Source of the DNA: a virus
Lineage: Duplodnaviria; Caudoviricetes
Direction: 5' to 3' (one strand)
Length of the DNA: 61,006 nucleotides
IMG/VR virus record: IMGVR_UViG_3300028809_000015
Coordinates: 1 to 61,006 of that record
The translations under genes were made by a program, and so were the position numbers. Below are positions 1 to 60,752 of this stretch, in pieces. Position 1 is the stretch's first letter. Every line of letters begins with the position of its first letter. The notes beneath the pieces were generated by a model. The model did no database searches. It was not told the origin of the DNA and was given only the letters and a program-made list of their open reading frames with translations.

Positions 1-481
1 GGATAACCTCTTTAAATAAAATATCTTCTTTGTTTTTTATATATGAATCAACAACATCGCCATCGCCATAGCCTCCAGAGTATTCAATGATCTGAGAGAG
101 GGCGGCCTCTTTTTCTTTGCATTTGAATAAATACAAAATCTTGTCAGACTGGTAACTCTTGCCGGCAGAGTTTTTTTGATGCTTATCATATGAGCGCAGT
201 ATCCAAGCCTTTCGGTGCGTCGAGGTTATGGCAAAGCTATCTTTGTCTACGTACGAAGCATATTCTCCAGATTGCTTTGATAGATCAACCCAGTTTTTTG
301 AAAGAGGCTCTCCAATTGGGAGGCTAATCTTTTTGCAGCCCGATGCGTCCCCATTGTTTTTGTATTCTGGCTTCCCGCTCTCATTAATACAGCGGTAGAC
401 CTCCAGAGGAAGAGGTGCCTGCGCATACCCAAGCAAAGGCAATGCCGATAAAACCAAGGCGATGGCAGCTGCGGTTTTCAT
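1..481 (-). CDS. Secreted protein (signal peptide + DUF4124-like segment + surface-adhesin-E-like domain), 5' part; continues across the circular join to 60907 (190 aa total)
   Basis: Manual translation [50 protein letters not shown]|PDSVGAGLLRRIC..stop; ATG overlaps the upstream Arc gene stop (ATGA); absent from the ORF track because it spans the end. Confidence 0.75.
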
Positions 482-768
482 GGCTTGTCCCTTTTTTCAA
501 ACACAAGCTGAAATTTCGCCCCCATCTTTTCCGCCTCTGCTTGGAATATCTTGATTGCATCTTCAAGAGTGCCCTCCCTAGAAACAGGGCTGAAACTTTC
601 TTGTAGGCGAGCAACGATCTCGGCGTTCATCGAACGTTTATTTGCCTTGGCTGATTCAGCAATACGGTCTCGCATGCCGTCTGGCAGGCGCACCACAAAT
701 TGATCTGCGGTCCGGCTTGGGTAGTTCTTTTCTTTTTCGCTTGTCATTTGCGTCACGATACTAGCCAC
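478..768 (-). CDS. Arc/Mnt-family ribbon-helix-helix repressor
   Basis: [34 protein letters not shown] is a canonical Arc signature; true start may be 748. Confidence 0.9.
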
Positions 769-831: not shown

Positions 832-1020
832 ATGGTCGCAAAGCATGGGGGAAATATGACTGATCCAGTAGCAATGCAGGTTCGAATACCGCTTGACCTG
901 AGAAATTGGCTGCGCAAAGCGGCTGAGGTAAATGCTCGTTCAATGAACGGACAACTTGTCACCATCCTAAGGAATGCCAAAGCCGCAGATGAAAAGCACG
1001 TCATTGGGGCGACGGCATGA
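832..1020 (+). CDS. Arc-family RHH protein, divergent from the first Arc gene (immI-like arrangement)
   Basis: MQVRIPLDLRNWLRKAAEVNARSMNGQLV. Confidence 0.85.
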   Translation: MVAKHGGNMTDPVAMQVRIPLDLRNWLRKAAEVNARSMNGQLVTILRNAKAADEKHVIGATA

Positions 1021-1658
1021 GCAAACTCGTCAAGGCTGAATACGAAGGCGTTGCCGTCAGTTTTCAGGACGACGGCTGGTTCAATGCAACACAAGTGGCC
1101 GCGAAACATGGAAAGCGAGTGGATAACTGGCTGCGCTCGCAGGAGACTCAGGACTATGTGGGCGCCCTTTCCAATGCACTAAATACCTCAGATGTGAGGG
1201 ATTTGGTAAAAACAAAGCGCGGCAAGGATGGTGGCACTTGGTTACACCCGAAACTAGCTGTTCGGTTTGCTCAATGGATTGACGTTCGATTTGCGGTTTG
1301 GTGCGACATGCAAATTGATGCGATATTGCACGAAAACAAAGCTGAACAGATTGACGAGAGTGAGCCAAGTACTGTACTGGAGCGGACGCCGCTGTATTTG
1401 GACGTCGTCCAGGCAGTAATTCGCCACCGTCTGATGTTTCCTGTTGTGTACCAAGGCATCAACGATGTCGCCGGGTCCGACGCATTTTGTTACATGACAA
1501 AAAAGCAGGTTCGCATTGCCAAGCCATTCGCCAGACGCATTGCAAATGGGACGGCGACGTCAGAAGACTGGAAAATTCTTGACGCTCGGCGGAAGGCTTT
1601 GGGGCGCGATCAAATTCAGCCAGAACTCAACGGCTTTGGGCCGCCGGCATTGAAGTAA
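1017..1658 (+). CDS. KilA-N domain antirepressor-like protein
   Basis: WFNATQVA..GKRVDNWLR..GGTWLHPKLAVRFAQWIDVRFAVWCD is the KilA-N pattern; follows an Arc gene as in the P22 mnt-arc-ant layout. Confidence 0.88.
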   Translation: MSKLVKAEYEGVAVSFQDDGWFNATQVAAKHGKRVDNWLRSQETQDYVGALSNALNTSDVRDLVKTKRGKDGGTWLHPKLAVRFAQWIDVRFAVWCDMQIDAILHENKAEQIDESEPSTVLERTPLYLDVVQAVIRHRLMFPVVYQGINDVAGSDAFCYMTKKQVRIAKPFARRIANGTATSEDWKILDARRKALGRDQIQPELNGFGPPALK

Positions 1659-5356: not shown

Positions 5357-6457
5357 TCAACCATTTGCCACGTCGATCCAATCAGATCCGCGCGGATCGA
5401 TGTACTTTTCCGTCATCTCTAGCGATGCATGGCCGAAAAGTTTTTGGGTAAATTCCTTTTGGTACTCCCTTTCGTAAAGCCTGCCAGATAATGACCTGAT
5501 TTCGTGAAAACTCTGTGGGGTTTTGTCTGTATTTGGCATTACCCCGGCAGCATCACGCGCCGCAGCAAATGCATTGCTGATCGTATCCATTTTGACCTTT
5601 GCCCCAGCCTTCACCACGCCAATACTGCGACGGTGGTGTATTAGGTACTTGCTTACAACCCCGCTATTCCGGCATTGCTTTACAACATCATCAAGCGACA
5701 TTCCAACGGCATTTAGCCGCAATGTGACTGCAATTCTGATTTTGGCACCTGTTTTACCGCGCTGGCAGTACCAGTACCCGTCCTTGAAGTCTGAAAACAT
5801 GGCGTTGGAAATCTCGGCGCGGGCTTGCCCTGAAAGCAATGCGAGCCACATCGCATTAGTCAGCCATGGATCAGCATGCGGCAGTATTTGCATGAACTGG
5901 TCAAGCGACAGCCGATCCCGTTTAATAGTGACCTTTGCCGTCTTCGTGACTTCGACGGGGTTATGCCCGCGATTGATCAGCCCCTGCGACTCAGCATCAA
6001 AGAAGATGTCGAAGAGGGCTGTTCTACGCTGTCTTGCTGCGCTCGTCCCTCGTGACGCCTCAGTTTCGGCAAGAAAAACATGGATTTCACGCGTTGTTAC
6101 GGTGTTTACTGGCTTGCTTGCGAATGGCGCGGCCAAGATAAATCGAATGCTGGACTTCATCTGCTTGACCGTGTTCGGGTTCGGATGCTCCAATGCATAG
6201 GCCAGTTCGTATGCCTTGGCGCACTCAGCAAGCGTCTTCGTGCCGCCTCCCTGAACCCAATCCGCAAGGGTCGTCGCCTTTTTCGATGATAAGCAAAGGT
6301 TTGCTGTTATCGCCTCGTCAAATGCTTTTACCCGGTCCCGGCCAAGCCCCTTGGTCTTGCCGTTATCAGGGTTCCTGTACCAAAAATACCCATCCGGCTT
6401 TTGGTATAAATTGTCAGGCCAGTTTTTCCGCTTTGAAATTCTTCGTCTTGCTGCCAT
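5357..6457 (-). CDS. int: Lambda-family tyrosine integrase with N-terminal arm-binding domain
   Basis: N-term WPDNLY..GYFWYRNP..GLG; catalytic R (GQARAEI), K (GKTG), HxxR (FHEIRSL), GH (LFGH) and Y (TEKY). Confidence 0.95.
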   Translation of the reverse strand: MAARRRISKRKNWPDNLYQKPDGYFWYRNPDNGKTKGLGRDRVKAFDEAITANLCLSSKKATTLADWVQGGGTKTLAECAKAYELAYALEHPNPNTVKQMKSSIRFILAAPFASKPVNTVTTREIHVFLAETEASRGTSAARQRRTALFDIFFDAESQGLINRGHNPVEVTKTAKVTIKRDRLSLDQFMQILPHADPWLTNAMWLALLSGQARAEISNAMFSDFKDGYWYCQRGKTGAKIRIAVTLRLNAVGMSLDDVVKQCRNSGVVSKYLIHHRRSIGVVKAGAKVKMDTISNAFAAARDAAGVMPNTDKTPQSFHEIRSLSGRLYEREYQKEFTQKLFGHASLEMTEKYIDPRGSDWIDVANG

Positions 6458-17449: not shown

Positions 17450-18172
17450 TTATAGGGCCGTCGAAGCCAATTTCTTTTTAATGCTCCACCAATCACATGT
17501 GTCGGTGTGACGAGGAATGCAATAAACTGGCTCGTCGCAGCCGTACTTTTTTGCGCACCGCTTTTCTTTCAATGCGCCGCCAACCAGCTTGTCAATAATC
17601 GATTTGTGAAGTAGTGGGACAGACATGGTGGCATCCACTCGGGCCAAGACAGGATCGGCTTCTGAGATTTGGCGGAATATATCGCCAGCCTTTGTCAGGT
17701 CATCCTGGCGCTCGAAGTTATTCAATGCTCCGTCACGACCACGAACGCGGCTCACCGCCAAGTCAGATGGCAAGTCCATCCAGAACGCAACATCGGGGAC
17801 GACAACCTCATGCCGAATACGGGCCTCTATTTCCTTATAGTCACCAACTAGAATGCCCTGATAGGCAATCGTTGAGTAAAAGTAACGATCCAGAATAACA
17901 ATACTTCCAGACTCTAGCGCCGGGATGATTTTGTTGTTTAGATGGTCTTGTCTGTCATGGATGAATGCCTCCAGCTCTTCTGCAAATGGCATGCGCCCAT
18001 TTAAAGCAGATTCTCTGAGCTTCTTTCCCCACTGTCCGTCCGTTGGCTCTTTGGAAACGATGACATTTTCGCCGATGGCGGTAAGGGCGTCTTCAAGCAA
18101 ACGGACCTGAGTGGTCTTGCCAGCACCGTCGATTCCGTCAAAGACAATTAAAATGCCGGGATATGTATTCAT
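17450..18172 (-). CDS. tmk: Thymidylate (dTMP) kinase with a Cys-rich C-terminal extension
   Basis: FDGIDGAGKTTQ P-loop, SKEPT, LDRYFYSTIAYQG, PDVAFWMDL; tail CAKKYGCDEPVYCIPRHTDTCDWW. Confidence 0.9.
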   Translation of the reverse strand: MNTYPGILIVFDGIDGAGKTTQVRLLEDALTAIGENVIVSKEPTDGQWGKKLRESALNGRMPFAEELEAFIHDRQDHLNNKIIPALESGSIVILDRYFYSTIAYQGILVGDYKEIEARIRHEVVVPDVAFWMDLPSDLAVSRVRGRDGALNNFERQDDLTKAGDIFRQISEADPVLARVDATMSVPLLHKSIIDKLVGGALKEKRCAKKYGCDEPVYCIPRHTDTCDWWSIKKKLASTAL

Positions 18173-22117: not shown

Positions 22118-22306
22118 ATGCAAAAGCAGCAAGACGAAGCATTGCTGGAGGCATTTCACTTAATGAATGCGGATGAACAGCAGTTCTTCTTGGAGATGGC
22201 GCAAGTACATACCGAAGGCCGAATTTCCAAAAAACCGGTATTAACGTTAGTTTTGTGTAGTTCGACCGCGCCTGTTGGCAACTCGCTTAGCCGCGGCCTT
22301 GGCTGA
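22118..22306 (+). CDS. SOS-controlled small protein, candidate antirepressor
   Basis: GGAGG RBS; downstream of the LexA box; convergent with and overlapping the cI 3' end. Confidence 0.65.
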   Translation: MQKQQDEALLEAFHLMNADEQQFFLEMAQVHTEGRISKKPVLTLVLCSSTAPVGNSLSRGLG

Positions 22307-22654
22307 ACTCATCAGAATTCCGCGTTCTGTTGGAGTCATGCTTTTGTATGCGTTGATTAACTCAATTATTTCTTCGGCTGTCACGTTCGCATCGTTTGCT
22401 GCTTCTGCTTGATGGAAGCGCTCTTCTTTGTTGGGCGCTCCAATCCCGACGCCCCCTTCGTTTAGCGACTCAAAAGAGATATTTAGCGCTTTCGCTAATT
22501 TTTTGACCGTCTCTGTTTCTGGCCCTTTTTTCCCGCCGCCCTTGAGTATCCGACTAATAGTCGCTTGAGGTACGCCAGACCTACGCGCCAGTTCGCTCTG
22601 CGACTCAATTTTCGCAGCCTTCATTGCCCTGTCTAGTCGGTCGCCAATAGTCAT
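22247..22654 (-). CDS. cI: CI-like XRE repressor without an S24 autopeptidase domain (135 aa)
   Basis: TIGDRLDRAM..SQSELARRSGVPQATISRIL HTH; divergent from cro; leaderless PRM-like promoter TTGCGT-17-TATAGT-6nt-ATG. Confidence 0.85.
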   Translation of the reverse strand: MTIGDRLDRAMKAAKIESQSELARRSGVPQATISRILKGGGKKGPETETVKKLAKALNISFESLNEGGVGIGAPNKEERFHQAEAANDANVTAEEIIELINAYKSMTPTERGILMSSAKAAAKRVANRRGRTTQN

Positions 22655-22660
22655 GCGCGA

Positions 22661-22736
22661 ACTATACATCTGCGTATATGGCGACGCAAAAATCGACTCA
22701 TTCGCGTATTGCATTATCTATCCATTCGTGTATAGT
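22661..22736. promoter_or_regulatory. OR region: PRM/PR and three operators
   Basis: CTATACATCTGCGTATA (22662), CGACTCATTCGCGTATT (22694), CTATCCATTCGTGTATA (22718); PR TTGCAT(22709)-16-TATAGT(22731). Confidence 0.82.
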
Positions 22737-22742
22737 TGGATC

Positions 22743-22988
22743 ATGGACAAGGACATTTGCACCCTTCTAAAAGAAATCAAAGTCGAGAGCGGCTGGAGTG
22801 AGACGCATATTGCCCGCGAGATAGGCACGTCTCAGCCGACTGTAAATCGCATCCTTAATGGGCAGCTTGATTGCCAAGGAAGCACTTTGCTCTCCATTGT
22901 TAATGTGCATAAGCGAATTTGCATCGCCTCCGTTGCAAAAGTAAATGCGGCATCAAAGAAACGACGCTCCACCGATAAACAAGAGTAG
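22743..22988 (+). CDS. cro: Cro-like HTH protein
   Basis: GWSETHIAREIGTSQPTVNRILNG; ATG 6 nt after the -10. Confidence 0.85.
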   Translation: MDKDICTLLKEIKVESGWSETHIAREIGTSQPTVNRILNGQLDCQGSTLLSIVNVHKRICIASVAKVNAASKKRRSTDKQE

Positions 22989-48057: not shown

Positions 48058-48519
48058 ATGCCGTTACAAGCCGCCTTTTACAAAGCCACCCGCCCCGGTA
48101 TCCCTGGAATTTACAACCGGCTGGTGCGAGCGTGGGAGCCGGGAGAATATAGCCACTGCGAGTTGATTTTTTCGGATGGGCTGGCGGCGTCTGCATCGTT
48201 CATGGATGGCGGGGTACGTTTCAAACGGATCGATTTCGACCCGAGGCATTGGGACATCATCGACTTGGGATGGGCAGATGAAGATTATGCGCGTCAATGG
48301 TTCGCAGATCACGAGCATGCGCCATATGACGTAATCGGACAGGTGCATTTTGTGATCAGTCCGGTGCGCGGCAGTAAGCGCGGTTACTGGTGCTCTGAGG
48401 CGATGGCGGCCGCACTGCGGTTGAAAGATCCATGGAGGTACGGGCCAAATTTATTACACGCTGTCCTAAGCAGTACATCACTCAACCCCGCTTCGGCGGG
48501 TTTTTTATTGCCCGGTTGA
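48058..48519 (+). CDS. Permuted papain-like (YaeF/YiiX-type) hydrolase
   Basis: YSHCEL (His) precedes PYD and WCSE (Cys), the permuted NlpC/P60 order. Confidence 0.65.
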   Translation: MPLQAAFYKATRPGIPGIYNRLVRAWEPGEYSHCELIFSDGLAASASFMDGGVRFKRIDFDPRHWDIIDLGWADEDYARQWFADHEHAPYDVIGQVHFVISPVRGSKRGYWCSEAMAAALRLKDPWRYGPNLLHAVLSSTSLNPASAGFLLPG

Positions 48520-50487: not shown

Positions 50488-51702
50488 ATGGCAATAAGTA
50501 AGTCTACGGCAGACCAGATTCAGTCTTGGTACACGACATATCTTGGGCGCGAGGCGGATGCAGGAGGATTGCAAAATTGGGCGTCCGCATTGGACAGCGG
50601 AGCAAATGTCTCGGATTTGCAATCTGCATTCCAAAGGGATGCATCGTCTGAGATCTCAGCCCGCCAATCGGCGGTGCCAGCCACAAGTAGCGGAGGCGGC
50701 GGCAGCTCGACGGGCTTGATTAATTCCATTCCCGGAGTGAGTTTCGCTGACTACAACGGGAAACAAGTCAGGGTAGATGATTATTACAAAAAGGACCTAA
50801 CCGACAATGCGGCAGATTTAGGCAAGAGGCTCGGTCGCACGATCACTGCGCAGGAATACGACGCGATGATCAATCCGGATACTTATGGCGCTCGGTGGGG
50901 GAATGTGGCTAACCCCGGGAAGAGTTCTGGGCCGGCGCTTTTATCGCAGACGGATCTCACTCAGCGCTCTGTTAGTCCAGCGACAGAAACTGTAAGTGGT
51001 CAAATGGGGAGCCTTCTTTCTGCGGATAGCCCCTACATGCAATCCGCGCGAGCACGCGGGCAACGTGCAGCGGCATCAAGGGGGCTAATAAATAGCTCGA
51101 TGGCCGGCACTGCTGGCGAGTCCGCTGCGATTGATGCCGCTCTTCAAATCGCCACGCCAGATGCCGCCACTTATGGCCGTGCCAGTGATTACAACACCGC
51201 ACTGGCGAACCAGACAGCGCAGTACAACGCGGATGTCCAAAACGATTTTACGCAACGCCAGCTAGACCGCAACCAACAACAATCGCTCGCGCAAATGCAG
51301 GATGCGACATCGCGATATACAGCAGAGCTGAGTTCAAACACATCACGTTACAACACAGACGCCGATTACCGCAGGACGATAGATGCCAATCGAGATTCGT
51401 TGGTGAATAACATCCTGATGAGTGGCGATTCAATCTCACCAGACCGTAAGGCCGCGATGCTGGAACAGCTTGGCATGGGCACTGCAGCACGCAGAGACGC
51501 CGGCGGAAATGTTATCCCAGGCACTGGCTTGGCTGGTGCCATCTACGTCATCGACAGTGTGAGCGCAGATTTGGTTGCACCAAGCCAGCAGCAATTCCGT
51601 GGAATAGTTGGGGGCAATGCAGGCGGGGTTGGCAACGGAGATGGTGGCGACGGAGGAGGCAGCGGTGGCGATGGCGGATTTGGTGGCGGGATTTCGGTCT
51701 GA
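50488..51702 (+). CDS. Internal virion/ejection protein with an N-terminal DUF4214-like domain
   Basis: IQSWYTTYLGREADAGGLQNWASALDSG; core SPYMQSARARG..RGLINSSMAG..ALQIATPDA typical of podophage DNA-transfer proteins. Confidence 0.72.
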   Translation: MAISKSTADQIQSWYTTYLGREADAGGLQNWASALDSGANVSDLQSAFQRDASSEISARQSAVPATSSGGGGSSTGLINSIPGVSFADYNGKQVRVDDYYKKDLTDNAADLGKRLGRTITAQEYDAMINPDTYGARWGNVANPGKSSGPALLSQTDLTQRSVSPATETVSGQMGSLLSADSPYMQSARARGQRAAASRGLINSSMAGTAGESAAIDAALQIATPDAATYGRASDYNTALANQTAQYNADVQNDFTQRQLDRNQQQSLAQMQDATSRYTAELSSNTSRYNTDADYRRTIDANRDSLVNNILMSGDSISPDRKAAMLEQLGMGTAARRDAGGNVIPGTGLAGAIYVIDSVSADLVAPSQQQFRGIVGGNAGGVGNGDGGDGGGSGGDGGFGGGISV

Positions 51703-52052
51703 TGGACGCCCGCATTGTCAGATATTTTGAAACACTGGGCGTTTCGTCCGAAGCGTTAGATGGGTGGGATGTCAAGTTAGCCCAGCGGGATGGCAAGGAT
51801 TGCGGATTCATCCTGACGAAGGGATCGGAAATCCACATGCAAGCATTCGAAAGCGGCGCGATGTCTCGCAAGAATATTACCGAATACCTGCAGCCACTGC
51901 TTGATGAATATGGCTACGCGACGACGCGTGTTCCCATCGCCGAAAGAGACCACAAATTGCGCCAAGTTCTAGGGTTTGAAATGACTTGGCAGGACGAAAG
52001 TTTCACCTATTGGGCGATTACAGAAATGCCTTTCCAGCGAAGGAATAAGTAA
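51702..52052 (+). CDS. GNAT-like small protein (T7 gp13-like position)
   Basis: EIHM..LLDEYGYATTRV..LGFE. Confidence 0.6.
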   Translation: MDARIVRYFETLGVSSEALDGWDVKLAQRDGKDCGFILTKGSEIHMQAFESGAMSRKNITEYLQPLLDEYGYATTRVPIAERDHKLRQVLGFEMTWQDESFTYWAITEMPFQRRNK

Positions 52053-52981
52053 TGAATAAACATTATCTAACAATTGGGCAGTCTCGCATCTACACGCTGG
52101 ATAACCCTATTGGCGACGCTTTCGGCGGGGCCGCGTATGGCGAGCGGAGGATGCCGGTTGCGGCGGTTGCAATGGCTGCAGGCAGTTTCGCGGCTGGGGC
52201 GACGGCATTCGCTGCGGCCACCACGACACTTGGCGCTATTGCTGCTGGTGCGACGATGATCGGCTCCGCGTTGACGATTATCGGCACGGTCACCGGCAAT
52301 GCAAAGCTGGCGAAAATCGGCGGAGTTCTTTCAATTGGCGGAATGGTTGGCACAGGATTGATTAACCATGCCGCCAAAAATGCTGCGGCTTCCGCTGGCG
52401 CGGCAGAGGCGGGGACAGCGTTAGCCGAAGGTGGAGCGGTTAATGAAGCAGCCGGTATCGCTGACGCCGTAGCCGATACCGGTGCGACCGGAATAGCAGG
52501 CGCCCCGACCGCAGGTACAGATTTGGCAGTGGATTCCATGCAATCAGCCGGGCCAATGACTGACATCCAGGCGCAAGGACTTATCGACAGGGTGCCGCCT
52601 ACGGTCGCTGATACGGCAACAGGACTGCAGCAACAAATTGGTTCGGACGCATCCAATGCGATGGTCGCCCAAGCACCTAACACATTGAGCACTGCAGGCA
52701 CTGGCGTAGAGCAATCCCTGCAAGGAAGCGCATTCGATCCAGAGATGAACAAGCTGTTGAGGCAACAGGAGCTTGTTCAGCAAGGTCAAGGCGGGTTTTT
52801 CGATAAGTTTGGCCGGTGGGTGAAAGACAACAAGGAATTAGTGCAGCTTGGCGGCGAAGGATTGAAAGCTGTTGGGGCGCTACTGCCTAGCGACAAAGCA
52901 AAGGCAGAGGCTGAATATTACAAGACGAAATCTGAAGAGACGCGTCGCCGTGCGCTTTGGGCTTCTGGCCGTACGGCGTAA
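52052..52981 (+). CDS. Ejection protein with hydrophobic Gly/Ala helices
   Basis: Membrane-insertion-like segment, low-complexity Ala-rich region; ejection cluster. Confidence 0.7.
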   Translation: MNKHYLTIGQSRIYTLDNPIGDAFGGAAYGERRMPVAAVAMAAGSFAAGATAFAAATTTLGAIAAGATMIGSALTIIGTVTGNAKLAKIGGVLSIGGMVGTGLINHAAKNAAASAGAAEAGTALAEGGAVNEAAGIADAVADTGATGIAGAPTAGTDLAVDSMQSAGPMTDIQAQGLIDRVPPTVADTATGLQQQIGSDASNAMVAQAPNTLSTAGTGVEQSLQGSAFDPEMNKLLRQQELVQQGQGGFFDKFGRWVKDNKELVQLGGEGLKAVGALLPSDKAKAEAEYYKTKSEETRRRALWASGRTA

Positions 52982-52993
52982 ACTGGAGATCAC

Positions 52994-53515
52994 ATGGACC
53001 AGCAAAACATTCAACAAGAAATCAATCAAGCAGGAACAGATCGATCCGGTATGGTCGATGTGGATTCAATCATCTCCGACATTGACGGGAAGATCCCATC
53101 GAACTTGAGGGGTATGTATGACAAGCTCATCTTGAGCGGCATGCGCATCATGTTTGATCGGAACTCGCATCAGATGTTTCTCGATCAGCTCGACAAGCCA
53201 GGCGACATGCCGACGAAGATGGCAGAGGGGATCATCAGTCTGATTTACATGTTGTGGGAGCGAAGCAATAAGACGATCCCGCCGCAGCTTATCTATCCGG
53301 TGACAGTCGTTCTCACGCTGCGCGCATTCGAATTTCTCCAGCGAGCTGGAGAACAAGAGGCTACGCCGGAGGTTTTGGGCGAGGCTGTATCTCAGTCTGT
53401 TGAGGGAGTTGTCTCGCGCTTCGGGTTTTCCGAGGATCAACTGTTGAACGCGGTGCAAGCACAGAAGTCAGGGAACAAGCGCGGTTTAATCAACGCACAA
53501 CCGGGAGGTAAGTAA
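52994..53515 (+). CDS. Conserved ejection-cluster protein
   Basis: GGAG RBS; helical. Confidence 0.65.
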   Translation: MDQQNIQQEINQAGTDRSGMVDVDSIISDIDGKIPSNLRGMYDKLILSGMRIMFDRNSHQMFLDQLDKPGDMPTKMAEGIISLIYMLWERSNKTIPPQLIYPVTVVLTLRAFEFLQRAGEQEATPEVLGEAVSQSVEGVVSRFGFSEDQLLNAVQAQKSGNKRGLINAQPGGK

Positions 53516-53517
53516 TC

Positions 53518-54594
53518 ATGGCTGATTGGGGTGCGGCACTCTCGTCACTAGGCGGATCGATTTCTAATCTTGCGGGCGCTGCGATTAAGCGCGAAGAGGA
53601 TCAAGCGGCGGAGGAACGGGCGGCAGATAGAAAGCTGGCTGATGCGGAGCGTCTTCTTGCGATTCAAGAAGCCATGAAGATGCGCGCGCATGAACGCTTC
53701 TCCAGCGTGGCAAAAATGAAAATGGAAGAACAGGTGCCGGTTCAGTCGGAGCCTGTCACGTCCTTGACGCCGGAAAGCGCGCGCGCGTCAGGCTTGAAAA
53801 ACGGCTTAATAAACGTGGACCCTGGGCAAATGGCTGGGAAGCTCCAGGCAATCCTGTTTGATCCGAATGCCACGCCGGAGCAAAAAGCAGATGCGCAGGG
53901 AATACTTGAGCAAATCACCGAACAGGCCGCAGCGCAAAAGGGGTTGAATGAAGAGGCCGCCGCAGGGAAGACGCGGAAGAGGACATTCTCAGAAGCTGTC
54001 CAGGCCGCGCGCGAGGAGACCGCTTTGAATGACCCAGCAGCGTTCGTCGCTGGGGAATCGATGTTCGGTGGCGATCGCAAGGCCGAACTCGAAGAGAAGA
54101 AGCTGACTTCCAAGGAGAAAATGGAGCAGTTGCGTATCGAGCAGCGCGACCGTAGCGACGACAAGCGCTTCGAGGCGATGATGGCACGCATTGAATCTGC
54201 TACAGGCGGCAAGGGCGGAAACAGTACGGCACTCATCCAGAATGCCGAATACCTTAAAACGCTTGGCTATTCCGACGACAAGATCGAGAAGTTTATCTTC
54301 GAGAAAAAGGAGATACCGCTTGCCGATCTGGCCGCGAAAATCATGGCCGGCGATTCCGTGCTTACGCCGCAAGAGGCGGCACAAAAAGCGGTGCAACTGA
54401 GCCGTGCGTTGGACGCGAGCCAAGTTAAAGTTCCTGATAAGCAAGGCGCATCGCAAGGTGCATCACCCTACCCAGAAGGTACTCCGCTTCGCGGGAAGGA
54501 CGGGAAAACCTACGTTGTAAAGAACGGGCAGCCCGTACTTCAGACGCAAGCCGGAAGAACTAGCGGTGGCCTCATCAACATGCGCCCACAATAA
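53518..54594 (+). CDS. Ejection protein (helical)
   Basis: MADWGAALSSLGG amphipathic start; coiled coils; C-terminal PEGT..GKTYVVKNG domain. Confidence 0.7.
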   Translation: MADWGAALSSLGGSISNLAGAAIKREEDQAAEERAADRKLADAERLLAIQEAMKMRAHERFSSVAKMKMEEQVPVQSEPVTSLTPESARASGLKNGLINVDPGQMAGKLQAILFDPNATPEQKADAQGILEQITEQAAAQKGLNEEAAAGKTRKRTFSEAVQAAREETALNDPAAFVAGESMFGGDRKAELEEKKLTSKEKMEQLRIEQRDRSDDKRFEAMMARIESATGGKGGNSTALIQNAEYLKTLGYSDDKIEKFIFEKKEIPLADLAAKIMAGDSVLTPQEAAQKAVQLSRALDASQVKVPDKQGASQGASPYPEGTPLRGKDGKTYVVKNGQPVLQTQAGRTSGGLINMRPQ

Positions 54595-54602
54595 GGAAAC
54601 TC

Positions 54603-57600
54603 ATGTCAACAAAATGGGATGATTTCACTCCGATTGACGAAGACGTTACTGACAGTGCCGCTGTTGATTGGGCGTCTTTCACGCCGATTGAGGCGAAGAA
54701 TGGACGTAATGCTTTTGCCGTCGCCAATGATACGGTCATTGAGGCGGGTAATGCCGTTGCCAGCGGTGCTGGCGCGATTGCAAACTTCATCTCCCCAGGC
54801 AACAGATTTTCCAGGTCGGTTGATGAGTTTGTAAAGTCCGGAGAAGAAAAGCAAAGCGATGTCACGAAGGCTGACAAGGAGCAATTCCGCTCTGATCTTC
54901 AGAATTCGGACACGATCAGCGACGACTTGGCTGCCGTGGGGCGACATGTTGTATCTAGTCCGCTCCAAGTTGCCGCGCAGGCGGCTGGTAGTTTTGCCGG
55001 CCCCGGCCTTGCTGTCGGTGCTGCGCGCGGACTTGCCGGTTTGCTTGGCGTAGGAGCGAAGATCGCTGGCCGTGTTGGACTTGGTGCTGGCGCGACAACC
55101 GGCGCGGCAATGGGCGGTGGTGACGCCGCAGGGAGCGCGTACGAGCTGGTGCAGCAAATCAGCGACGACGTTCTGCTGAAGGTCCCTGAAGTCGTTGAGA
55201 TGCGCAATTCCGGCATGTCGATGCAAGACGTCCGGCATGAAGTGGCGACCGCTGCCGCGCGTGATGCTAGTGTATTTCCCGCGCTTGCTGGCGGCGTCGC
55301 CGGTCTGGTTGGCGCGGAGAGGCTTCTTGCTGTGGGCAAGGTCGGTCAGGCTGGCGTAAAGGGAGTATTGGCAACCGGCGCTATTGAAGGTGCTACTGAA
55401 GCGGCTGAAGAAGGTCTGACCCAGTTTGAGGGGCGTCGTGCTGCGCAGCAGTACGATCAATCCATTGACCCGACCAAAAACGTCGCCGCCATGGCTGCGA
55501 TGGGTGGAATAACTGGATTTGGTACAGGCGCGGGCTTGAGCGCGATCACCAGGCCGACTCCGAAGATTGAAGACATCGCCTCCGCCGAATCCGTGGACGA
55601 GGCGATAGCAGCTGCAAACGCTGTCGTGACCGCTCCGCATCCGTCAGCGAACGCGGACCAGCAGAAACTATTGATGGAATTAGAAAGACAAGCCAAGCAG
55701 GTCGCTGAGCCTATCGTTTCGAATCCCATCGAACAGCCTTCTATGGCGGTGCCGTCCGAGCAAATAGCTGTTCCTCCTGCAGTTGCCGCGCAAGAGACGC
55801 CAATTCCAGAGCTTGAAGACTTCATTAAACGCGGACGCACAAAGGACGAACTGTTTGCCGAACGTGAGGCGCAACGCCGCATGCAGGAAGACGCCGCGCG
55901 TGAGCAGGGCATCGCAAAGATGCTGGAAGCCGGTCGAGATCAGCAGGTAGAACAGGCAGAGGTTTTGACGCAGGCGCAAGGATTTGATTCTGCCGAGCCA
56001 ACCGCCATGCAATTGGCGATGCAAAAAGCGCAGGAGCGCCGGAGATTATTAACTACGCCAATTTCCCAACGTCAGCCGGTTCAAGCGGAATCGCCAAAAA
56101 TTGAGGGGCAAACAAATGACAAGCAATCCCTTGCCACTGATTTACCAATTCGAGATGGGGGCGTTGGAGGCGCTGAAGTTGGCGCGCCAATGCTGGGAAG
56201 TGCCGCGACAGGACGCCAAATTGCTGCGCAATCTGCTCCTATGGGATCGCCCAATACCCAAGCGGTTGTTCCCGTTGGTGGAACTGATATTTTTGCTACA
56301 AACCAGACCGCCAACGAACAGCCTGCATTAGGTCAAACTGCCCCGCAAGTAGCTGATGTCGCTGCAATAGAGCGAAGGCTAGACGCGAACGCCCGCAAGC
56401 TGGTTGACCAGATGACGCCGGAAGAAATGCGCCGCGCGCTGTTGACCGATGAAATGACTGGACTTGGGAACCGCCGCGCCTATAATGAAGTTGTCAAAAA
56501 ACCATTTCAGGCAAGCATCGATATTGATTCGTTGAAGTGGATTAATGACAACATGGGGCATGAGGCCGGCGATCAGTTGATTCAGGCTGTCGGCACGGCG
56601 ATGCGGGATGAAATTGCGGATTCCTACCATCTCAGCGGCGACGAATTCGCGGCGCAGTTTGATGATGAAGTCACTGGCAACGAGGCGATTGCCAGAGTGC
56701 GCGAGAGATTGAATGGTGCTACATTTACCTACACGGCACCAGACGGAACCGTTATTACAAAACAGGGAGCGGAGTTAAGCTATGGAATCGCAGACACCTA
56801 TGGCGCAGCCGATGAAAAGCTCAAAGCCGACAAAGCAGGTAGAGAAGCCAGAGGCGAGCGCGCCGGACGAGGCGCAGAGCCTGCAGGCGTGGTTAGAAAG
56901 CCTGCCGCCAGGCGGGAAATTGACCGTGACGCTGCCGCCCAAGAAGTAGAAGCGGGGCCACAGGCAAAGGGCGAAGACGCCAAGTTCTTCCAGCCCGGCA
57001 GCGCAGCAGAAGAAAGCATCGTCCCAGAAACGACTTTCAAAAAAGCAGGGCCTTTCAAGACCAAGACCGATGCGTCTTTATTCCGAGATAAACATAAGCT
57101 ATCTGGCGTATCTATTAGGCAGACGGAAGGCGGATGGGTATTTGACCCAACTCCAGCGCCGCTGACGGATGCGGAGCGAGAGGCTGTTCGTGCCGATATT
57201 CAGGCGTTGAACAAAACTCTCAAGGCAAACGGCATCCCTGCTGTGCTGCCGATCTATACCGCGCCCACCGCCAACCACCAACTCGCTCGCAGTATCGCCA
57301 AGGTCTTTGGCGCCGAAGTCCGCTTTGTCTCAAACAACAAGGTATTCCAAGGTGTTGCGCATCGGGGAAAGGCTTTCATCGCCTCCAGCATGAAGCACCC
57401 GGAATTGGCGATTACGGGGCATGAGACGTTCCACGTCATGGAGCAAACCAATCCTGAGCTGGCTGATGGGCTGCTGGAACAAGTCCGCGCCTATCTCCAA
57501 GACGACGCCATCCCAGACCGGCAGATGCGCGAAGAACTGATGGCTGGCCGCTCGATCAGCGAGCGCTATGCTGCCGGCGAAGTGCTTGCCGACCTGAACG

Positions 57601-60600
57601 GTGCCATGTGGCTTGACCCGAAGTTCTGGCGCGAGATGGTGCAGCGCGATGTGAATCTGTTCCGCCGCGTGGCTTATGTGTTCATGGAGAACGCGACTAA
57701 GGCCATTGAATCGCTGACCGGGACACGGTTCGACGTGGAAGCGCTGGTGACGGATGTTGATAAGGTGCGCTCGATCATTGCGCAGGCTTGGGCGGATCAC
57801 AATCAGGGGCGGGATAAAAAGACGCCAAAAGACGATGATGTGCAGTTCTCGCGCGTCGACGCTGATCGCAGCGCCACTCCAGATAAGCCGAACGATTCCG
57901 CTATTCCAGAAGAAACCAGCACACAAGCGGCTCGCCGAGTTATTCAGGATAAATTCAACCGCTTCAAGGTTCTGCAGGCGAATATTGAAATGGTGGCTGC
58001 GCAGGAGGCTGGCTATCAAGGCGACGACATTTTTGAAGCTCGCGCTTTCATGGAAGAAAAGGGCATACTAAATCCAATTAGCGACCAGTCTGACGTGTAT
58101 CAGGCTGAAACACTGATGTCCGGTCGAATCTCTACTCGCAAGGAGGATTTCCGCGAAAGACAGATGAACCCGCTAATCGAAAAGACTTACGCCGCCGGAC
58201 TGAGCATGTCGCAGGTTGCTGACTTCCTGAAGATGCAGCACGCTCCTGAGGCGAACAATAGAGCGCGCGAAATTCAAGGCAGCCCGGAAGCTACTGCTTT
58301 CGGAATATCGGACGAAAAAGCCGCGCAAGCAATGAAGGAATTCAAGGCGCTACCAAACTTCAGCGAACTGAAGAGCGTCGCTAATGAATGGCGAGCTATT
58401 ACGGAGCAGTCAAAGAAAATCCTTTTAGATGCCGGCATCATTACGAAAGAAATAGCTGACGCATGGGATGCAACATATTCCGTATATGTCCCAGTAAAAG
58501 GCAAGGATAGCAAGTCTGGCGGCGGCAAAGGATTGTCCGTGAATGGCAGGCAGAAGCAGCGCTTGGGACATAGCGAGCGTGACGAGGCGATTCTTGAAAA
58601 CATCCTCCGGGATCATGAGCGCGCGATTTCAAATCAGGAAGTCAACGAAGTTGGGATGACGCTCATCCGCTTTGGTCTGGCGGCGAAGAATCCCGACATC
58701 ATGACGATAGAAAAGCCGGCGAAGCGCCAAGTATTGAAAGATGCCTCAGCATTCGAGGTGCAATATAACGGTAATTTTGTTGCCGCGTTCAGCGACAAGG
58801 CGAGCGCAGAAGCATTCAAAGCAAAGGACGCGCTAAAGAATTCACGCGACACGAAAGATTATTCGATTGAGAAAACGACGAATCCATATGTCGCTCTCAT
58901 GACATCGCCGTTGCTCGCGGAGAATGAGGTAAACGTTTATGTGGCAGGCCATGCGGTGCGCATTCAAATTAACGATGAGATTGCCGCACGCGCCTATACT
59001 AACTTGGGGGTTGAAAGCCTTGGAGCAATCCTGTCAGCTGGTCGCGAAATCAACTCGTGGCTGTCAAAAGCGTATACCGGATACAGCCCCGATTTCATTT
59101 TGACAAATCCAATACGCGATGCGATTCAAGGATCTATCACCCTGGCAGGCGAGCATGGCGCCGGCATGGCAGCAAAGATATTTGGCAATTATCCGCTGGC
59201 AGTAAAAGAGCTGGTCAAACACTTCCGCGAGCCAGGGAAATCGAAGTTGGTGACTGAATACCGGGCGGCAGGGGGATCGACTGGTGCTGCATACCTATCG
59301 GATCTTGAGCGAATCGGCAATGACGTGATGGCGGCTTACGACGAGTGCGCGGGTGCTATTGCAACATATCGACGTGTTTATGCAGAGAAAATCGAAAGTG
59401 GCGCCAGCCCAGCAAAAGCAGGCACTTATGCAGCAGCAAAGGCCGGACTGTCCGGGTTCAAAAATCTACCAGTGATCGGCCATTTCTTGCGGCTGATGGA
59501 GCGAATCAACGCCGTAACTGAAAACGCGCTACGCGTCGCAACGTTTAAAACGCTGGTCGATAACGGCGTCAGCAGGCCGAAAGCGGCGGCACAGGCCAAG
59601 AACTTGATGAACTTCAATCGCAAAGGCGAGTTGTCAAACCAGGCAGGAGCGCTTTACTTGTTTTTTAACCCGAGCGTACAGGGGGCATCTCTTTTTGCTG
59701 ACACGCTCGCCACGTCGAAGCACAAGAACCAAGCGCGCGCATTGGCCGGCACGATGACGCTGGCTGCGTTGTTCCTCGCTGAAGCGGCTCGTAGTGACGG
59801 CGAAGACGATGAACGTAAATGGAAGCAAACGCCCGATCACGTGAAGGACCGCAATTGGGTTGTTGGTTTCGGCGATTATCAATTCACACTGCCCTTGCCG
59901 TATGGGTATGGCGTGTTCCAAACGCTTGGTAATGTGATGTCCGACTACATGCACGGCGAGGATGGTTATAAGCTCGGCATCCGCCTTGCCTCAAGTGTGT
60001 TCGGCAATTTCTCGCCGATTGGGAATCCAATGGAAGGGAAGTCGGCTGTTTTTTCAATGTCGCCAACGCTGCTCAAGCTGGCTGGCGGCCCGGGCATAAA
60101 CGAGAACACTTTTGGCCAGCAGATTAAGCCGGATCAGTGGGGATCTTCTAAGCCAGAGTCGCAACTGATGTACCGCAGCACGAAAGGGTCAAGCTACGCA
60201 GAGATTGCCGAGAGTCTTAACGCCATAACCGGCGGCTCAAAGTTTGAGCGAGGAATTATCGATGTTTCTCCGGAAACATTAAAGTATTGGGTTAAATCGC
60301 TTACCGGCGGCGCAGGACAATTTGCATTTGACTCCATCAATATTCCCTCAAATCTAGTTCAGGGCGCCCCTTTGGATCCCAAAGACATCCCGGTAGCGAG
60401 AAGATTTGTTCGGGAGGTTGGCGTCACCGATGCTCGATCGGCATTCTGGGAAAAGGCCAATGCAGTCAAGGCCGCAGCAGATACCTTTTCAACAGCAAAG
60501 AAGTCCGGCGACATGGCGGCGGCACGCGCAATATTCAACGAAAACAAGGCCCTAATATCGCTTGCCGACTACGCTAGGGAGTCGCAAAAGATGGCAAAAG

Positions 60601-60752
60601 CGCGAAGGGACCAAGCGGACAAAATCCGTATGGATGACGCAATCCCGTTGGCCGTAAAGCATGAAAGAATGAAGATTATCGAAATGAAGGAAGCTGCGGT
60701 TTATCAGCGGTTCTTAAAGAACTTTGACGCAAGGACTGAGGCGAAAAAATAG
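54603..60752 (+). CDS. Giant internal virion (polyvalent) protein: Gly/Ala membrane region + GGDEF diguanylate cyclase + HExxH metallopeptidase + LPD38-like C-terminus
   Basis: 2049 aa; TDEMTGLGNRRAY..DIDSLKWINDNMGHEAGDQLI..SGDEF (about 56440-56850); GHETFH..GEVLAD (from 57420); KDRNW..LPLPYGYG..NENTFGQQI..SPETLKYWV (about 59820-60420). Confidence 0.88.
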   Translation: MSTKWDDFTPIDEDVTDSAAVDWASFTPIEAKNGRNAFAVANDTVIEAGNAVASGAGAIANFISPGNRFSRSVDEFVKSGEEKQSDVTKADKEQFRSDLQNSDTISDDLAAVGRHVVSSPLQVAAQAAGSFAGPGLAVGAARGLAGLLGVGAKIAGRVGLGAGATTGAAMGGGDAAGSAYELVQQISDDVLLKVPEVVEMRNSGMSMQDVRHEVATAAARDASVFPALAGGVAGLVGAERLLAVGKVGQAGVKGVLATGAIEGATEAAEEGLTQFEGRRAAQQYDQSIDPTKNVAAMAAMGGITGFGTGAGLSAITRPTPKIEDIASAESVDEAIAAANAVVTAPHPSANADQQKLLMELERQAKQVAEPIVSNPIEQPSMAVPSEQIAVPPAVAAQETPIPELEDFIKRGRTKDELFAEREAQRRMQEDAAREQGIAKMLEAGRDQQVEQAEVLTQAQGFDSAEPTAMQLAMQKAQERRRLLTTPISQRQPVQAESPKIEGQTNDKQSLATDLPIRDGGVGGAEVGAPMLGSAATGRQIAAQSAPMGSPNTQAVVPVGGTDIFATNQTANEQPALGQTAPQVADVAAIERRLDANARKLVDQMTPEEMRRALLTDEMTGLGNRRAYNEVVKKPFQASIDIDSLKWINDNMGHEAGDQLIQAVGTAMRDEIADSYHLSGDEFAAQFDDEVTGNEAIARVRERLNGATFTYTAPDGTVITKQGAELSYGIADTYGAADEKLKADKAGREARGERAGRGAEPAGVVRKPAARREIDRDAAAQEVEAGPQAKGEDAKFFQPGSAAEESIVPETTFKKAGPFKTKTDASLFRDKHKLSGVSIRQTEGGWVFDPTPAPLTDAEREAVRADIQALNKTLKANGIPAVLPIYTAPTANHQLARSIAKVFGAEVRFVSNNKVFQGVAHRGKAFIASSMKHPELAITGHETFHVMEQTNPELADGLLEQVRAYLQDDAIPDRQMREELMAGRSISERYAAGEVLADLNGAMWLDPKFWREMVQRDVNLFRRVAYVFMENATKAIESLTGTRFDVEALVTDVDKVRSIIAQAWADHNQGRDKKTPKDDDVQFSRVDADRSATPDKPNDSAIPEETSTQAARRVIQDKFNRFKVLQANIEMVAAQEAGYQGDDIFEARAFMEEKGILNPISDQSDVYQAETLMSGRISTRKEDFRERQMNPLIEKTYAAGLSMSQVADFLKMQHAPEANNRAREIQGSPEATAFGISDEKAAQAMKEFKALPNFSELKSVANEWRAITEQSKKILLDAGIITKEIADAWDATYSVYVPVKGKDSKSGGGKGLSVNGRQKQRLGHSERDEAILENILRDHERAISNQEVNEVGMTLIRFGLAAKNPDIMTIEKPAKRQVLKDASAFEVQYNGNFVAAFSDKASAEAFKAKDALKNSRDTKDYSIEKTTNPYVALMTSPLLAENEVNVYVAGHAVRIQINDEIAARAYTNLGVESLGAILSAGREINSWLSKAYTGYSPDFILTNPIRDAIQGSITLAGEHGAGMAAKIFGNYPLAVKELVKHFREPGKSKLVTEYRAAGGSTGAAYLSDLERIGNDVMAAYDECAGAIATYRRVYAEKIESGASPAKAGTYAAAKAGLSGFKNLPVIGHFLRLMERINAVTENALRVATFKTLVDNGVSRPKAAAQAKNLMNFNRKGELSNQAGALYLFFNPSVQGASLFADTLATSKHKNQARALAGTMTLAALFLAEAARSDGEDDERKWKQTPDHVKDRNWVVGFGDYQFTLPLPYGYGVFQTLGNVMSDYMHGEDGYKLGIRLASSVFGNFSPIGNPMEGKSAVFSMSPTLLKLAGGPGINENTFGQQIKPDQWGSSKPESQLMYRSTKGSSYAEIAESLNAITGGSKFERGIIDVSPETLKYWVKSLTGGAGQFAFDSINIPSNLVQGAPLDPKDIPVARRFVREVGVTDARSAFWEKANAVKAAADTFSTAKKSGDMAAARAIFNENKALISLADYARESQKMAKARRDQADKIRMDDAIPLAVKHERMKIIEMKEAAVYQRFLKNFDARTEAKK

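Follow-up and report, generated by a model that had tools for sequence, protein, structure and literature searches.

Can a phage carry the synthase of a bacterial second messenger inside a giant protein that enters the host cell along with its DNA? This question is raised by a locus in the virus record IMGVR_UViG_3300028809_000015 (Caudoviricetes), a complete record of 61,006 bases (IMG/VR; CheckV 100%; classed as linear) that was analysed over its whole length and is referred to here as the window. Its largest open reading frame (ORF), at 54603-60752 (+), comprises 2049 codons without an internal stop. An earlier description of this DNA (the original prediction), made from the letters without database searches, placed a GGDEF (diguanylate cyclase) domain inside the encoded protein and proposed that the virion delivers it to make cyclic di-GMP (c-di-GMP). 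It is apparent from the results presented below that the GGDEF observation is robust, and the protein is probably an injected diguanylate cyclase that does not have the canonical RxxD feedback site.

The GGDEF domain and its active site

The original prediction named a profile search and a structure prediction as checks, and both were performed. The Pfam GGDEF profile (PF00990) matched amino acids (aa) 615-722 of the giant protein with an E value of 4.6e-10 and 39.9 bits, above the gathering cut-off of 23.8. A six-frame search of the record with a GGDEF profile returned the same region (56445-56813; 44.9 bits, E 4.2e-13, profile positions 3-148). Comparison with the sequences of the PDB, using phmmer, yielded 41 distinct chains at E≤0.01, nearly all of them named as diguanylate cyclases or GGDEF proteins, with 'Uncharacterized protein', 'Ammonium transporter' or 'Motility regulator' as the title of a few. 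DgcR (6zxb) was matched best, at 1e-8, and PleD (1w25) at 1.3e-5. As sequence matches, these are far above chance.

For structure prediction, an alignment of 23 rows (A1) was assembled from aa 583-790, 17 translated stretches of related viral loci and five short database proteins. AlphaFold2 predicted a GGDEF fold for aa 583-790, with a mean predicted local distance difference test score (pLDDT) of 88.3 and a predicted template modelling (pTM) score of 0.77. In the model, helices at aa 584-602 and 606-614 precede a core of alternating strands and helices, in keeping with the helix originally described before the domain. Foldseek returned 94 PDB matches to this model at E≤0.001. Among the top matches listed, all are diguanylate cyclases or GGDEF proteins (SadC, 4wxo, at 3.2e-9; PleD, DgcB, WspR, DgcR, DosC and DgcZ). 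TM-scores ranged from 0.45 to 0.66, owing in part to differences in the leading helices, and identity to the solved cyclases was 19-28%.

Bases 56439-56852 translate as LLTDEMTGLGNRR...SIDIDSLKWINDNMGHEAGDQ...YHLSGDEF...ADEKLKADKAGREAR, in exact agreement with the SGDEF motif previously located at 56634-56648. The interval first assigned to the domain, 56440..56850, is in frame and stands as the position of the catalytic part, but the conserved module proved to be wider, extending over approximately aa 590-762 (56370-56888). Alignment with DgcR and with the Pfam profile revealed a complete catalytic inventory: D640 of DID, K645 and N648-D649 of KWIND, G656-D657 of GHEAGD, D680-E681, and K744 and R747, the last two in the final helix. 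D642 and H676 are further key residues of the domain. The active-site roles are those that we take to apply by PleD numbering, that of the specificity residue D344 alone having been drawn from a published paper. SGDEF conforms to the signature [G/A/S]-G-[D/E]-E-F, with both acidic residues present. The Asp previously assigned to the GTP-specificity position is, by alignment, D657. An Asp here is the mark of enzymes that make strictly c-di-GMP; in the Hypr enzymes, which make cyclic GMP-AMP (cGAMP), the residue is Ser or Thr (PMC9140294).

Two accessory features of GGDEF domains are missing from the module, as had been noticed from the letters. H676 occupies the position two residues before the signature (-2), where Arg is usual, and no RxxD inhibitory site (I-site) is found at the canonical spacing: when the module is aligned with DgcR, its counterpart of the RKSD-bearing DgcR loop has three residues fewer and reads ADSY. 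Many active cyclases have no RxxD, and its absence is no bar to membership of the GGDEF family. Active enzymes with an SGDEF signature have been reported, namely ECA3270 and, in vivo, MbaA.

In comparison with the bacterial cyclases PleD, WspR, DgcR, SadC and DgcB, the module has the same fold, the DxLTGLxNRR motif, the metal-binding Asp, the Lys, the N/D residues, the acidic pair, the C-terminal K/R and a helical dimer stalk. It differs from them in having no sensory or receiver domain, in the His at -2, in the Ser that replaces the first Gly and in the absence of RxxD. In addition, both the I-site loop and the helix that follows NRR are shortened, and two motifs, ERR...R and GxRxxRGxxPxG, are extra. 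We infer from these comparisons that the module, at aa ~590-762, would be an active GTP-specific cyclase.

A clade of GGDEF modules in giant phage proteins

It was of interest to determine how widely the module is distributed. A length-matched, word-indexed search, limited to proteins of 1126-3586 aa, gave 95 hits, of which four (P0091-P0094) are ordinary cellular PAS/GAF/EAL signalling proteins with E≥2e-7. Most of the other 91, which include the query, have E values from 1e-16 to 1e-77, and most combine GGDEF with polyvalent-protein domains; by precomputed Pfam assignments, LPD38 is present in 20, the inorganic pyrophosphatase domain InPase in 24, ART-PolyVal in 18 and RadC in 14. An exhaustive search of 1.84 billion cluster representatives returned 28,509 at E≤1e-3, 1,228 at ≤1e-10 and 274 at ≤1e-30. 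The clade module was found, with an independent E value (i-E) below 1e-10, in 205 of the 209 proteins collected, and 179 of these 205 carriers are at least 1000 aa long, the longest having 5713 aa. Among viral contigs, the module lies in an open frame of at least 1000 aa at 17 of 21 matching loci (1024-4065 aa, some frames ending at contig ends), the other four being solo ORFs of 174-208 aa. On these sequence comparisons the clade is large and distinct, and is situated mostly within giant phage polyvalent proteins. The GGDEF match at L022:10001-10621 contains an in-frame stop, and the open frame there is 208 aa.

Solo genes of the clade also occur in siphophages, in 58 records of the genera Yuavirus (Pseudomonas) and Vojvodinavirus (Bordetella), all at less than 60% identity. 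A cultured phage with the module in its giant protein was not found among the 50,697 phage records searched. The gp58 protein of PaSz-4 (156 aa) is similar to the module described here (36% identity, E 2e-26), retaining DxD, K-W-I-N-D, G-D, SGDEF, the Lys and GxRxxRG. The solo proteins differ from it in standing alone, outside any virion protein, and in having Arg at -2. In PaSz-4 the gene is situated among small early-type genes and adjoins one for an 'antirestriction protein', a position that fits an early role. A single functional hint was found in print: lysogens of LK3 form hyper-biofilms, and the link to the solo gene drawn by the authors of that study is correlative (PMC8471281).

Conservation was assessed in an alignment of 87 domain copies from the 95 proteins, only copies with i-E≤1e-15 and at least 140 query positions having been kept. 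Although identity across these copies ranges from 34 to 67%, six residues are invariant (D640, N648, G656, G679, D680 and E681, 87/87) and four nearly so (K645 and K744, 86/87; D642 and D649, 85/87). D640, K645, D680, E681 and K744 are kept jointly in 85 of the 87. The specificity pair N648/D657 is N/D in 76 copies, N/N in eight, N/T in two and N/E in one. The clade has its own signature, [YF]-H-x-S-G-D-E-F, in which the residue at -2 is H (72 copies) or R (14) and that at the first position is S (68), G (11) or H (five). These two positions, which correspond to 56628-56638 in the window, covary: H/S was observed in 64 copies, R/G in eight, R/S in four and H/G in three. This covariation of H676 and S678 suggests a co-adapted variant of the active site. 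A canonically spaced RxxD was found in none of the 87 copies, and any RxxD within 16 residues upstream in three.

Arg-rich motifs flank the catalytic domain on both sides. The leading helix bears E590-R591-R592...R598 (E-R-R-x5-R; 56370-56396), with R591 and R592 each conserved in 80 and R598 in 79 of the 87 copies. In the C-terminal motif (Table 1), G751 and R753 are each present in 84, R756 in 83, P760 in 82 and G757 in 80; the confidence of the AlphaFold2 model drops over this stretch. These motifs could form an alternative site for nucleotide binding, for regulation or for cleavage.

The association with a pyrophosphatase was also analysed. A profile built from three segments named InPase (PF18823) by Pfam was run over the 209 collected proteins and detected an InPase-like domain in 56 of the 205 clade proteins (P0008, P0015, P0041 and 53 others), upstream of the GGDEF module in 28 and downstream in 28. 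The two domains lie within 150 aa of one another in 41 of the 56; in 2000 trials with InPase placed at random within each protein, the mean was 10.7 and the highest count 20. The synthesis of c-di-GMP frees two molecules of pyrophosphate (PPi), so such tight linkage is what would be expected if the cyclase turns over. The 2049-aa protein itself has no InPase domain. Iyer et al. 2017 (PMC5512222) suggest that InPase might clear PPi for polymerases or nucleotidyltransferases in general. Three proteins (P0010, P0073 and P0078) combine the GGDEF module with a 2H phosphoesterase (PF13563), and P0010 additionally has a weak, sub-threshold match to the anti-CBASS protein Acb1 (E 1.4e-4; 22 bits, the cut-off being 27). 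A protein of the P0010 type would hold a maker of cyclic dinucleotides together with a possible degrader of cyclic nucleotides.

Bacterial diguanylate cyclases use a helical stalk for dimerization, and a homodimer formed via the leading helices was predicted here also. A two-copy complex of the module, modelled with A1, scored 0.48, compared with 0.00 for the best of three controls; this score was reached by 20 of 30 structures of same-chain pairs and by one of 23 single-chain structures, counts that apply only approximately, as the alignment was our own. The dimer runs agreed in at least 93% of contacts, with a partner pLDDT of at least 81, and the predicted symmetric interface comprises aa 600-614, 625 and 629 (module residues 18-32, 43 and 47). 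Because GGDEF dimers with helical stalks have already been solved, this outcome may reflect likeness to them rather than binding. A metagenomic protein of 1628 aa (P0005) has tandem clade modules at aa 345-532 and 609-796, an arrangement that would allow an intramolecular dimer.

Proposed delivery and mechanism, and competing explanations

The giant protein is of the polyvalent type: a single chain of 2049 aa joins GGDEF, an HExxH domain and LPD38 in a phage, and it matches four PHROG families of giant phage proteins (phrog_14770, phrog_616, phrog_10691 and phrog_18222). Its C-terminal 950 aa, searched by tblastn, matched 342 phage records, 332 of them over at least 80% of the length. At ~31% identity the carriers are Bcep22-like phages of Burkholderia and GP4-like phages of Ralstonia, and at ~25% they are Escherichia phages, both Stx-converting and related ones; approximately 100 Vibrio phages carry the module as well. 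This C-terminal module is a widely shared, unnamed virion-protein chassis; LPD38, which lies within it, is listed as specific to phage-type polyvalent proteins (Iyer et al. 2017, PMC5512222). The protein as a whole looks like a common C-terminal chassis joined to exchangeable cargo. Most of the Escherichia and Vibrio homologues are annotated as hypothetical, and one as an 'LPD5 domain-containing protein'.

The resemblance can be followed in gp75 of Bcep22 and gp69 of JC1 (Lessievirus) and in the Ralstonia GP4-like proteins, which are likewise giant late proteins and in which the C-terminal ~950 aa with LPD38 align at ~31% over 98%. Those proteins are longer, at ~4500-4600 aa, and their annotated cargo comprises transglycosylase, helicase and methylase, none of which was found by Pfam in the present protein, whose cargo is GGDEF plus HExxH; the head genes are unrelated to the Bcep22/JC1 type. 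A 'DarB-like antirestriction' label was considered and rejected. At E≤1 the only Pfam domains are GGDEF and LPD38, and the label was dropped because helicase and methylase (methyltransferase) domains are absent, the C-terminal module alone being held in common. In CsCl-purified virions of JC1, gp69 (4515 aa) ranked second by mass spectrometry, with 51 unique peptides (PMC9144972, Table 6), and the authors cite similar mass spectrometry of Bcep22 and BcepIL02 virions. Given the ~31% identity of the C-terminal part to proteins of this kind, and the polyvalent-protein concept, packaging in the virion and injection may be proposed for the protein studied here.

The neighbours of related giant genes that could be named are tail, virion-structural or DNA-ejection genes. 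In one locus (L014), two tail-protein genes (phrog_394, which also matches a 'tail tubular protein' family, and phrog_376) are followed by three small ORFs and then by the giant gene and tail fibres, an order that we take to resemble the internal-core position of T7. Elsewhere, a 'DNA ejection protein' family is encoded two genes upstream (L005), and virion structural proteins lie upstream (L011 and L016). The original prediction had treated the gene as the last of its genome, a position that merely reflects the linearization of the record. Between the spanin gene and the giant gene are five co-oriented ORFs (404, 116, 309, 173 and 358 aa; 50488-54594). These gave no PHROG match and, in Pfam, only a weak DUF4214 match, and tblastn of 53518-54594 and 50488-51702 against phages returned no match. 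Since nothing useful matched, they weigh neither for nor against a virion module, and they may be virion or ejection partners.

With modest conviction, we think it probable that the module is active as a cyclase specific for GTP, enters the cell together with the DNA, dimerizes via its leading helices and raises c-di-GMP without RxxD-type inhibition. In this scheme the giant protein would be packed in the virion and enter the cell along with the DNA, the conserved C-terminal ~950 aa mediating packaging or ejection and the N-terminal cargo being variable. The cargo would consist of the cyclase and of the HExxH domain, which may cut it free. Two modules would then pair through the leading helices and convert two GTP into c-di-GMP, the host level of which would rise before, or without, phage gene expression. 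Product feedback of the RxxD type should not limit the output, because the canonical RxxD is absent. By a rough estimate, some 10 molecules, a per-virion copy number that is assumed, at 0.1-1 turnovers/s would yield micromolar c-di-GMP in minutes. GTP drain, another outcome that had been proposed, was rejected, since by the same rough reckoning so few injected molecules would need hours to empty a millimolar pool. On this estimate, signalling is a more plausible purpose than depletion of GTP. The c-di-GMP might act on motility or pilus receptors, on exopolysaccharide or on the lysis-lysogeny choice of this temperate phage, or might interfere with nucleotide-based immunity. From the comparisons above we infer catalysis, packaging and injection, as well as the physiological target.

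A broader proposal is more tentative, and we judge it somewhat less likely to hold than to fail. According to it, a widespread class of tailed phages packs an RxxD-less cyclase, often fused to InPase, in an ejection or polyvalent protein, and a burst of c-di-GMP would follow within minutes of DNA entry, independently of transcription. The cell would become sessile and altered in its receptors, with a block to superinfection, a bias in the lysis-lysogeny choice or a jamming of immune signalling as a possible result. The His/Ser signature and the Arg motifs would be adaptations to activity without a sensory partner.

Several points weigh against delivery of an active cyclase. His replaces a widely conserved Arg and Ser the first Gly of the signature, and the Pfam match covers only positions 3-128 of the 161 in the profile, the C-terminal third of the domain having diverged. 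Ser introduced at the first signature position of VCA0965 abolished activity, so that activity is not to be assumed here; the authors of that study suggest that other residues co-evolve with the signature variant. The argument for packaging draws on another region of the protein, at ~31% identity, and the JC1 data are silent on whether N-terminal cargo stays attached or is injected. In the window, the giant gene comes after the endolysin and spanin genes and the five matchless ORFs, and no recognizable c-di-GMP receptor or phosphodiesterase (PilZ, EAL or HD-GYP) was found among the 60 phage ORFs scanned. The spanin gene suggests a host only as far as Gram-negative. The assumed copy number belongs here as well. 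Searches of the full-text literature, which leaves most subscription journals outside, returned no experimental study of the clade or of a virion-borne or polyvalent-protein GGDEF domain, and 0 papers for 'GGDEF' together with 'ejection protein'. The weakest links are the catalytic competence of the His/Ser variant, whether the virion keeps the N-terminal cargo, and the identity of the host.

In a rival explanation, the cyclase would be active mainly in the producing cell, late in infection as the giant protein builds up, or after processing, and would not be injected. The giant gene belongs to a late rightward block that follows the lysis genes, and the protein would consequently be in the cytoplasm before packaging; packaging of the N-terminal cargo is no more than a prediction, and DdrB of phage P1 is cut before it is packaged (Iyer et al. 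2017, PMC5512222). Such a role is nevertheless unlikely, though not negligible, in view of the solo Yuavirus homologues, which adjoin an antirestriction gene among small early-type genes, of the related giant genes, which are found among ejection and tail genes, and of the JC1 homologue, which is an abundant component of the virion. It is also conceivable that the domain is an active nucleotidyltransferase or NTPase whose main product is something other than c-di-GMP, such as pppGpG in linear form, another cyclic dinucleotide (a mixed one, for instance) or simply hydrolysed nucleoside triphosphate. In the present protein the N648/D657 pair is that of enzymes making strictly c-di-GMP, and the best sequence and fold matches are all diguanylate cyclases, which makes this distinctly unlikely, even though the clade has an H-x-SGDEF signature and additional Arg-rich motifs of its own, N, T or E replaces Asp at the specificity position in 11 of the 87 copies, GGDEF domains with other activities exist (the Hypr enzymes and the YybT ATPase), and an adjacent pyrophosphatase suits any reaction that releases PPi.

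A catalytically dead domain, serving as a nucleotide-binding sensor or as a dimerization or structural block of the giant protein, is very unlikely. Approximately a quarter of GGDEF proteins have degenerate sites, some with non-catalytic roles (PMC3974145), and two usually conserved residues are replaced here by Ser and His. Against this, the five catalytic residues are jointly retained in nearly all copies of a clade as divergent as that described above, the part that is missing is the product-binding RxxD site, and a dead enzyme would have little reason to be so closely linked to a pyrophosphatase. The injected cyclase is the preferred explanation.

The core idea, a GGDEF domain in giant proteins delivered by phages, has been in print since 2017. 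The original prediction allowed that such domains might already have been noted in polyvalent proteins, and Iyer, Burroughs, Anand, de Souza and Aravind 2017 (PMC5512222) do describe them, for example in Acetonema longum (WP_004096050.1). Those proteins, like the present one, are giant and multidomain, with GGDEF joined to unrelated domains and LPD modules, and their delivery at invasion is predicted; interference with host nucleotide responses, or the triggering of a response directed at competing elements, is proposed there. The same paper calls the GGDEF association 'not very widespread', whereas the clade defined here has 274 representatives at E≤1e-30. The H-x-SGDEF signature, the loss of the I-site and the InPase adjacency were not seen in passages of its text, and its figures and FTP supplements may cover some of them. 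This study adds an account of how large and coherent the clade is, together with its H-x-SGDEF signature and H/S covariation, the clade-wide I-site loss, the flanking Arg-rich motifs, the predicted dimer interface and the strong pyrophosphatase adjacency. These clade-level features strengthen the case for the modules as working enzymes.

As a concept, an enzyme that travels in the virion and works on entry links the present protein with RelA/SpoT polyvalent domains and with the virion RNA polymerase of N4. RelA/SpoT would likewise make a host second messenger; the folds and products of both RelA/SpoT and the N4 polymerase differ from those of GGDEF. To our knowledge, only the N4 polymerase, of these two, has experimental proof of injection. 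If the cyclase is active and injected, the virus would deliver a ready-made second-messenger synthase, and the programmes of motility, cell surface and biofilm could be rewired before phage genes are read. Phage peptides that act on host cyclases are known (e.g. a YfiN binder), and the logic here would be unlike that of such peptides, or of the phage enzymes and sponges that remove immune nucleotides. The large clade, the strong conservation of catalytic residues and the coupling to InPase make the question a general one, therefore, and not a curiosity of one phage. The module is also tractable, being ~200 aa in length and represented in solo form in cultured Pseudomonas Yuaviruses.

Other regions of the giant protein and of the phage genome

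The features identified in the window are listed in Table 1. The N-terminal region of the giant protein is rich in Ala (18%) and Gly (13%), has hydrophobic segments at aa 45-63, 132-150, 224-242 and 294-312, and is shared with only two of the other 208 collected proteins; it may be a membrane-inserting part of an ejection protein. The segment that follows, aa 330-585, is rich in Ala, Gln, Glu and Pro and matches none of the other collected proteins.

Table 1. Features of the giant protein and of the phage genome, with positions in the window
Feature	Position	Strand	Basis or remark
Giant ORF P0001, phage-type polyvalent protein	54603..60752	+	2049 aa; Pfam GGDEF and LPD38
Gly/Ala-rich N-terminal region, aa 32-318	54696..55556	+	phrog_18222 match; composition, hydropathy scan
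Two predicted helices before the catalytic domain, aa 584-614	56352..56444	+	AlphaFold2 (module residues 2-20, 24-32); predicted homodimer interface
GGDEF catalytic domain, aa 615-750	56445..56852	+	Pfam, six-frame search, PDB sequences, AlphaFold2 and Foldseek, clade conservation
SGDEF signature, S678-G-D-E-F682	56634..56648	+	Direct translation
Clade-specific motif G751-x-R753-x-x-R756-G757-x-x-P760-x-G762	56853..56888	+	Clade conservation
HExxH domain, aa ~890-1075 (H940-E941-x-x-H944, E993)	57270..57827	+	Motif and topology
C-terminal module, ~950 aa, aa 1100-2049	57900..60749	+	tblastn, Pfam
LPD38, aa 1739-1931	59817-60395	+	Pfam E 6.1e-33
Arc-like repressor	478-768	-	
KilA-N protein	1017-1658	+	
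Lambda-type integrase with arm-binding domain	5357-6457	-	
Thymidylate kinase	17450-18172	-	E 1e-37
CI-like repressor	22247-22714	-	
Cro-like helix-turn-helix protein, divergent	22653-22988	+	
'Moron' family resembling enoyl-CoA hydratase, between tail fibre and lysis genes	48058-48519	+	phrog_1128

The HExxH domain is common to 12 other GGDEF-bearing giant proteins, and H940, E941, H944 and E993 are invariant in the 13 sequences (alignment A2). It gave no Pfam match and no Foldseek match at E≤0.001, a wide VIA-align search gave only generic helical matches (Z≤7.4), and no relatives of the domain were found in the viral contigs. A protein-cluster search with the domain returned only unnamed viral clusters, one of them with LPD23 on 20% of it. 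The AlphaFold2 model (pLDDT 72.9) consists of a helix, three strands, the HExxH helix and a later helix bearing the Glu, a topology that fits the zincin MPTase core of polyvalent proteins described by Iyer et al. 2017 (PMC5512222), and zincins are among the weak Foldseek rows (BepA, IrrE/PprI and an M48-like peptidase). By motif and topology only, the domain is a candidate zincin-like processing peptidase.

On its gene content the phage, which is uncultured, is temperate, having an integrase and a CI-like repressor. It is probably short-tailed, since an SU10-type adaptor is encoded and no tape-measure or sheath gene was recognizable in the record. No tRNA genes, sought as a further clue to the host, were found in the record. 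A megablast search with the giant gene gave zero matches among 50,697 phage records, and the phage therefore has no close sequenced relative among them. The best match of its portal protein, at 46% identity, was to a metagenomic phage.

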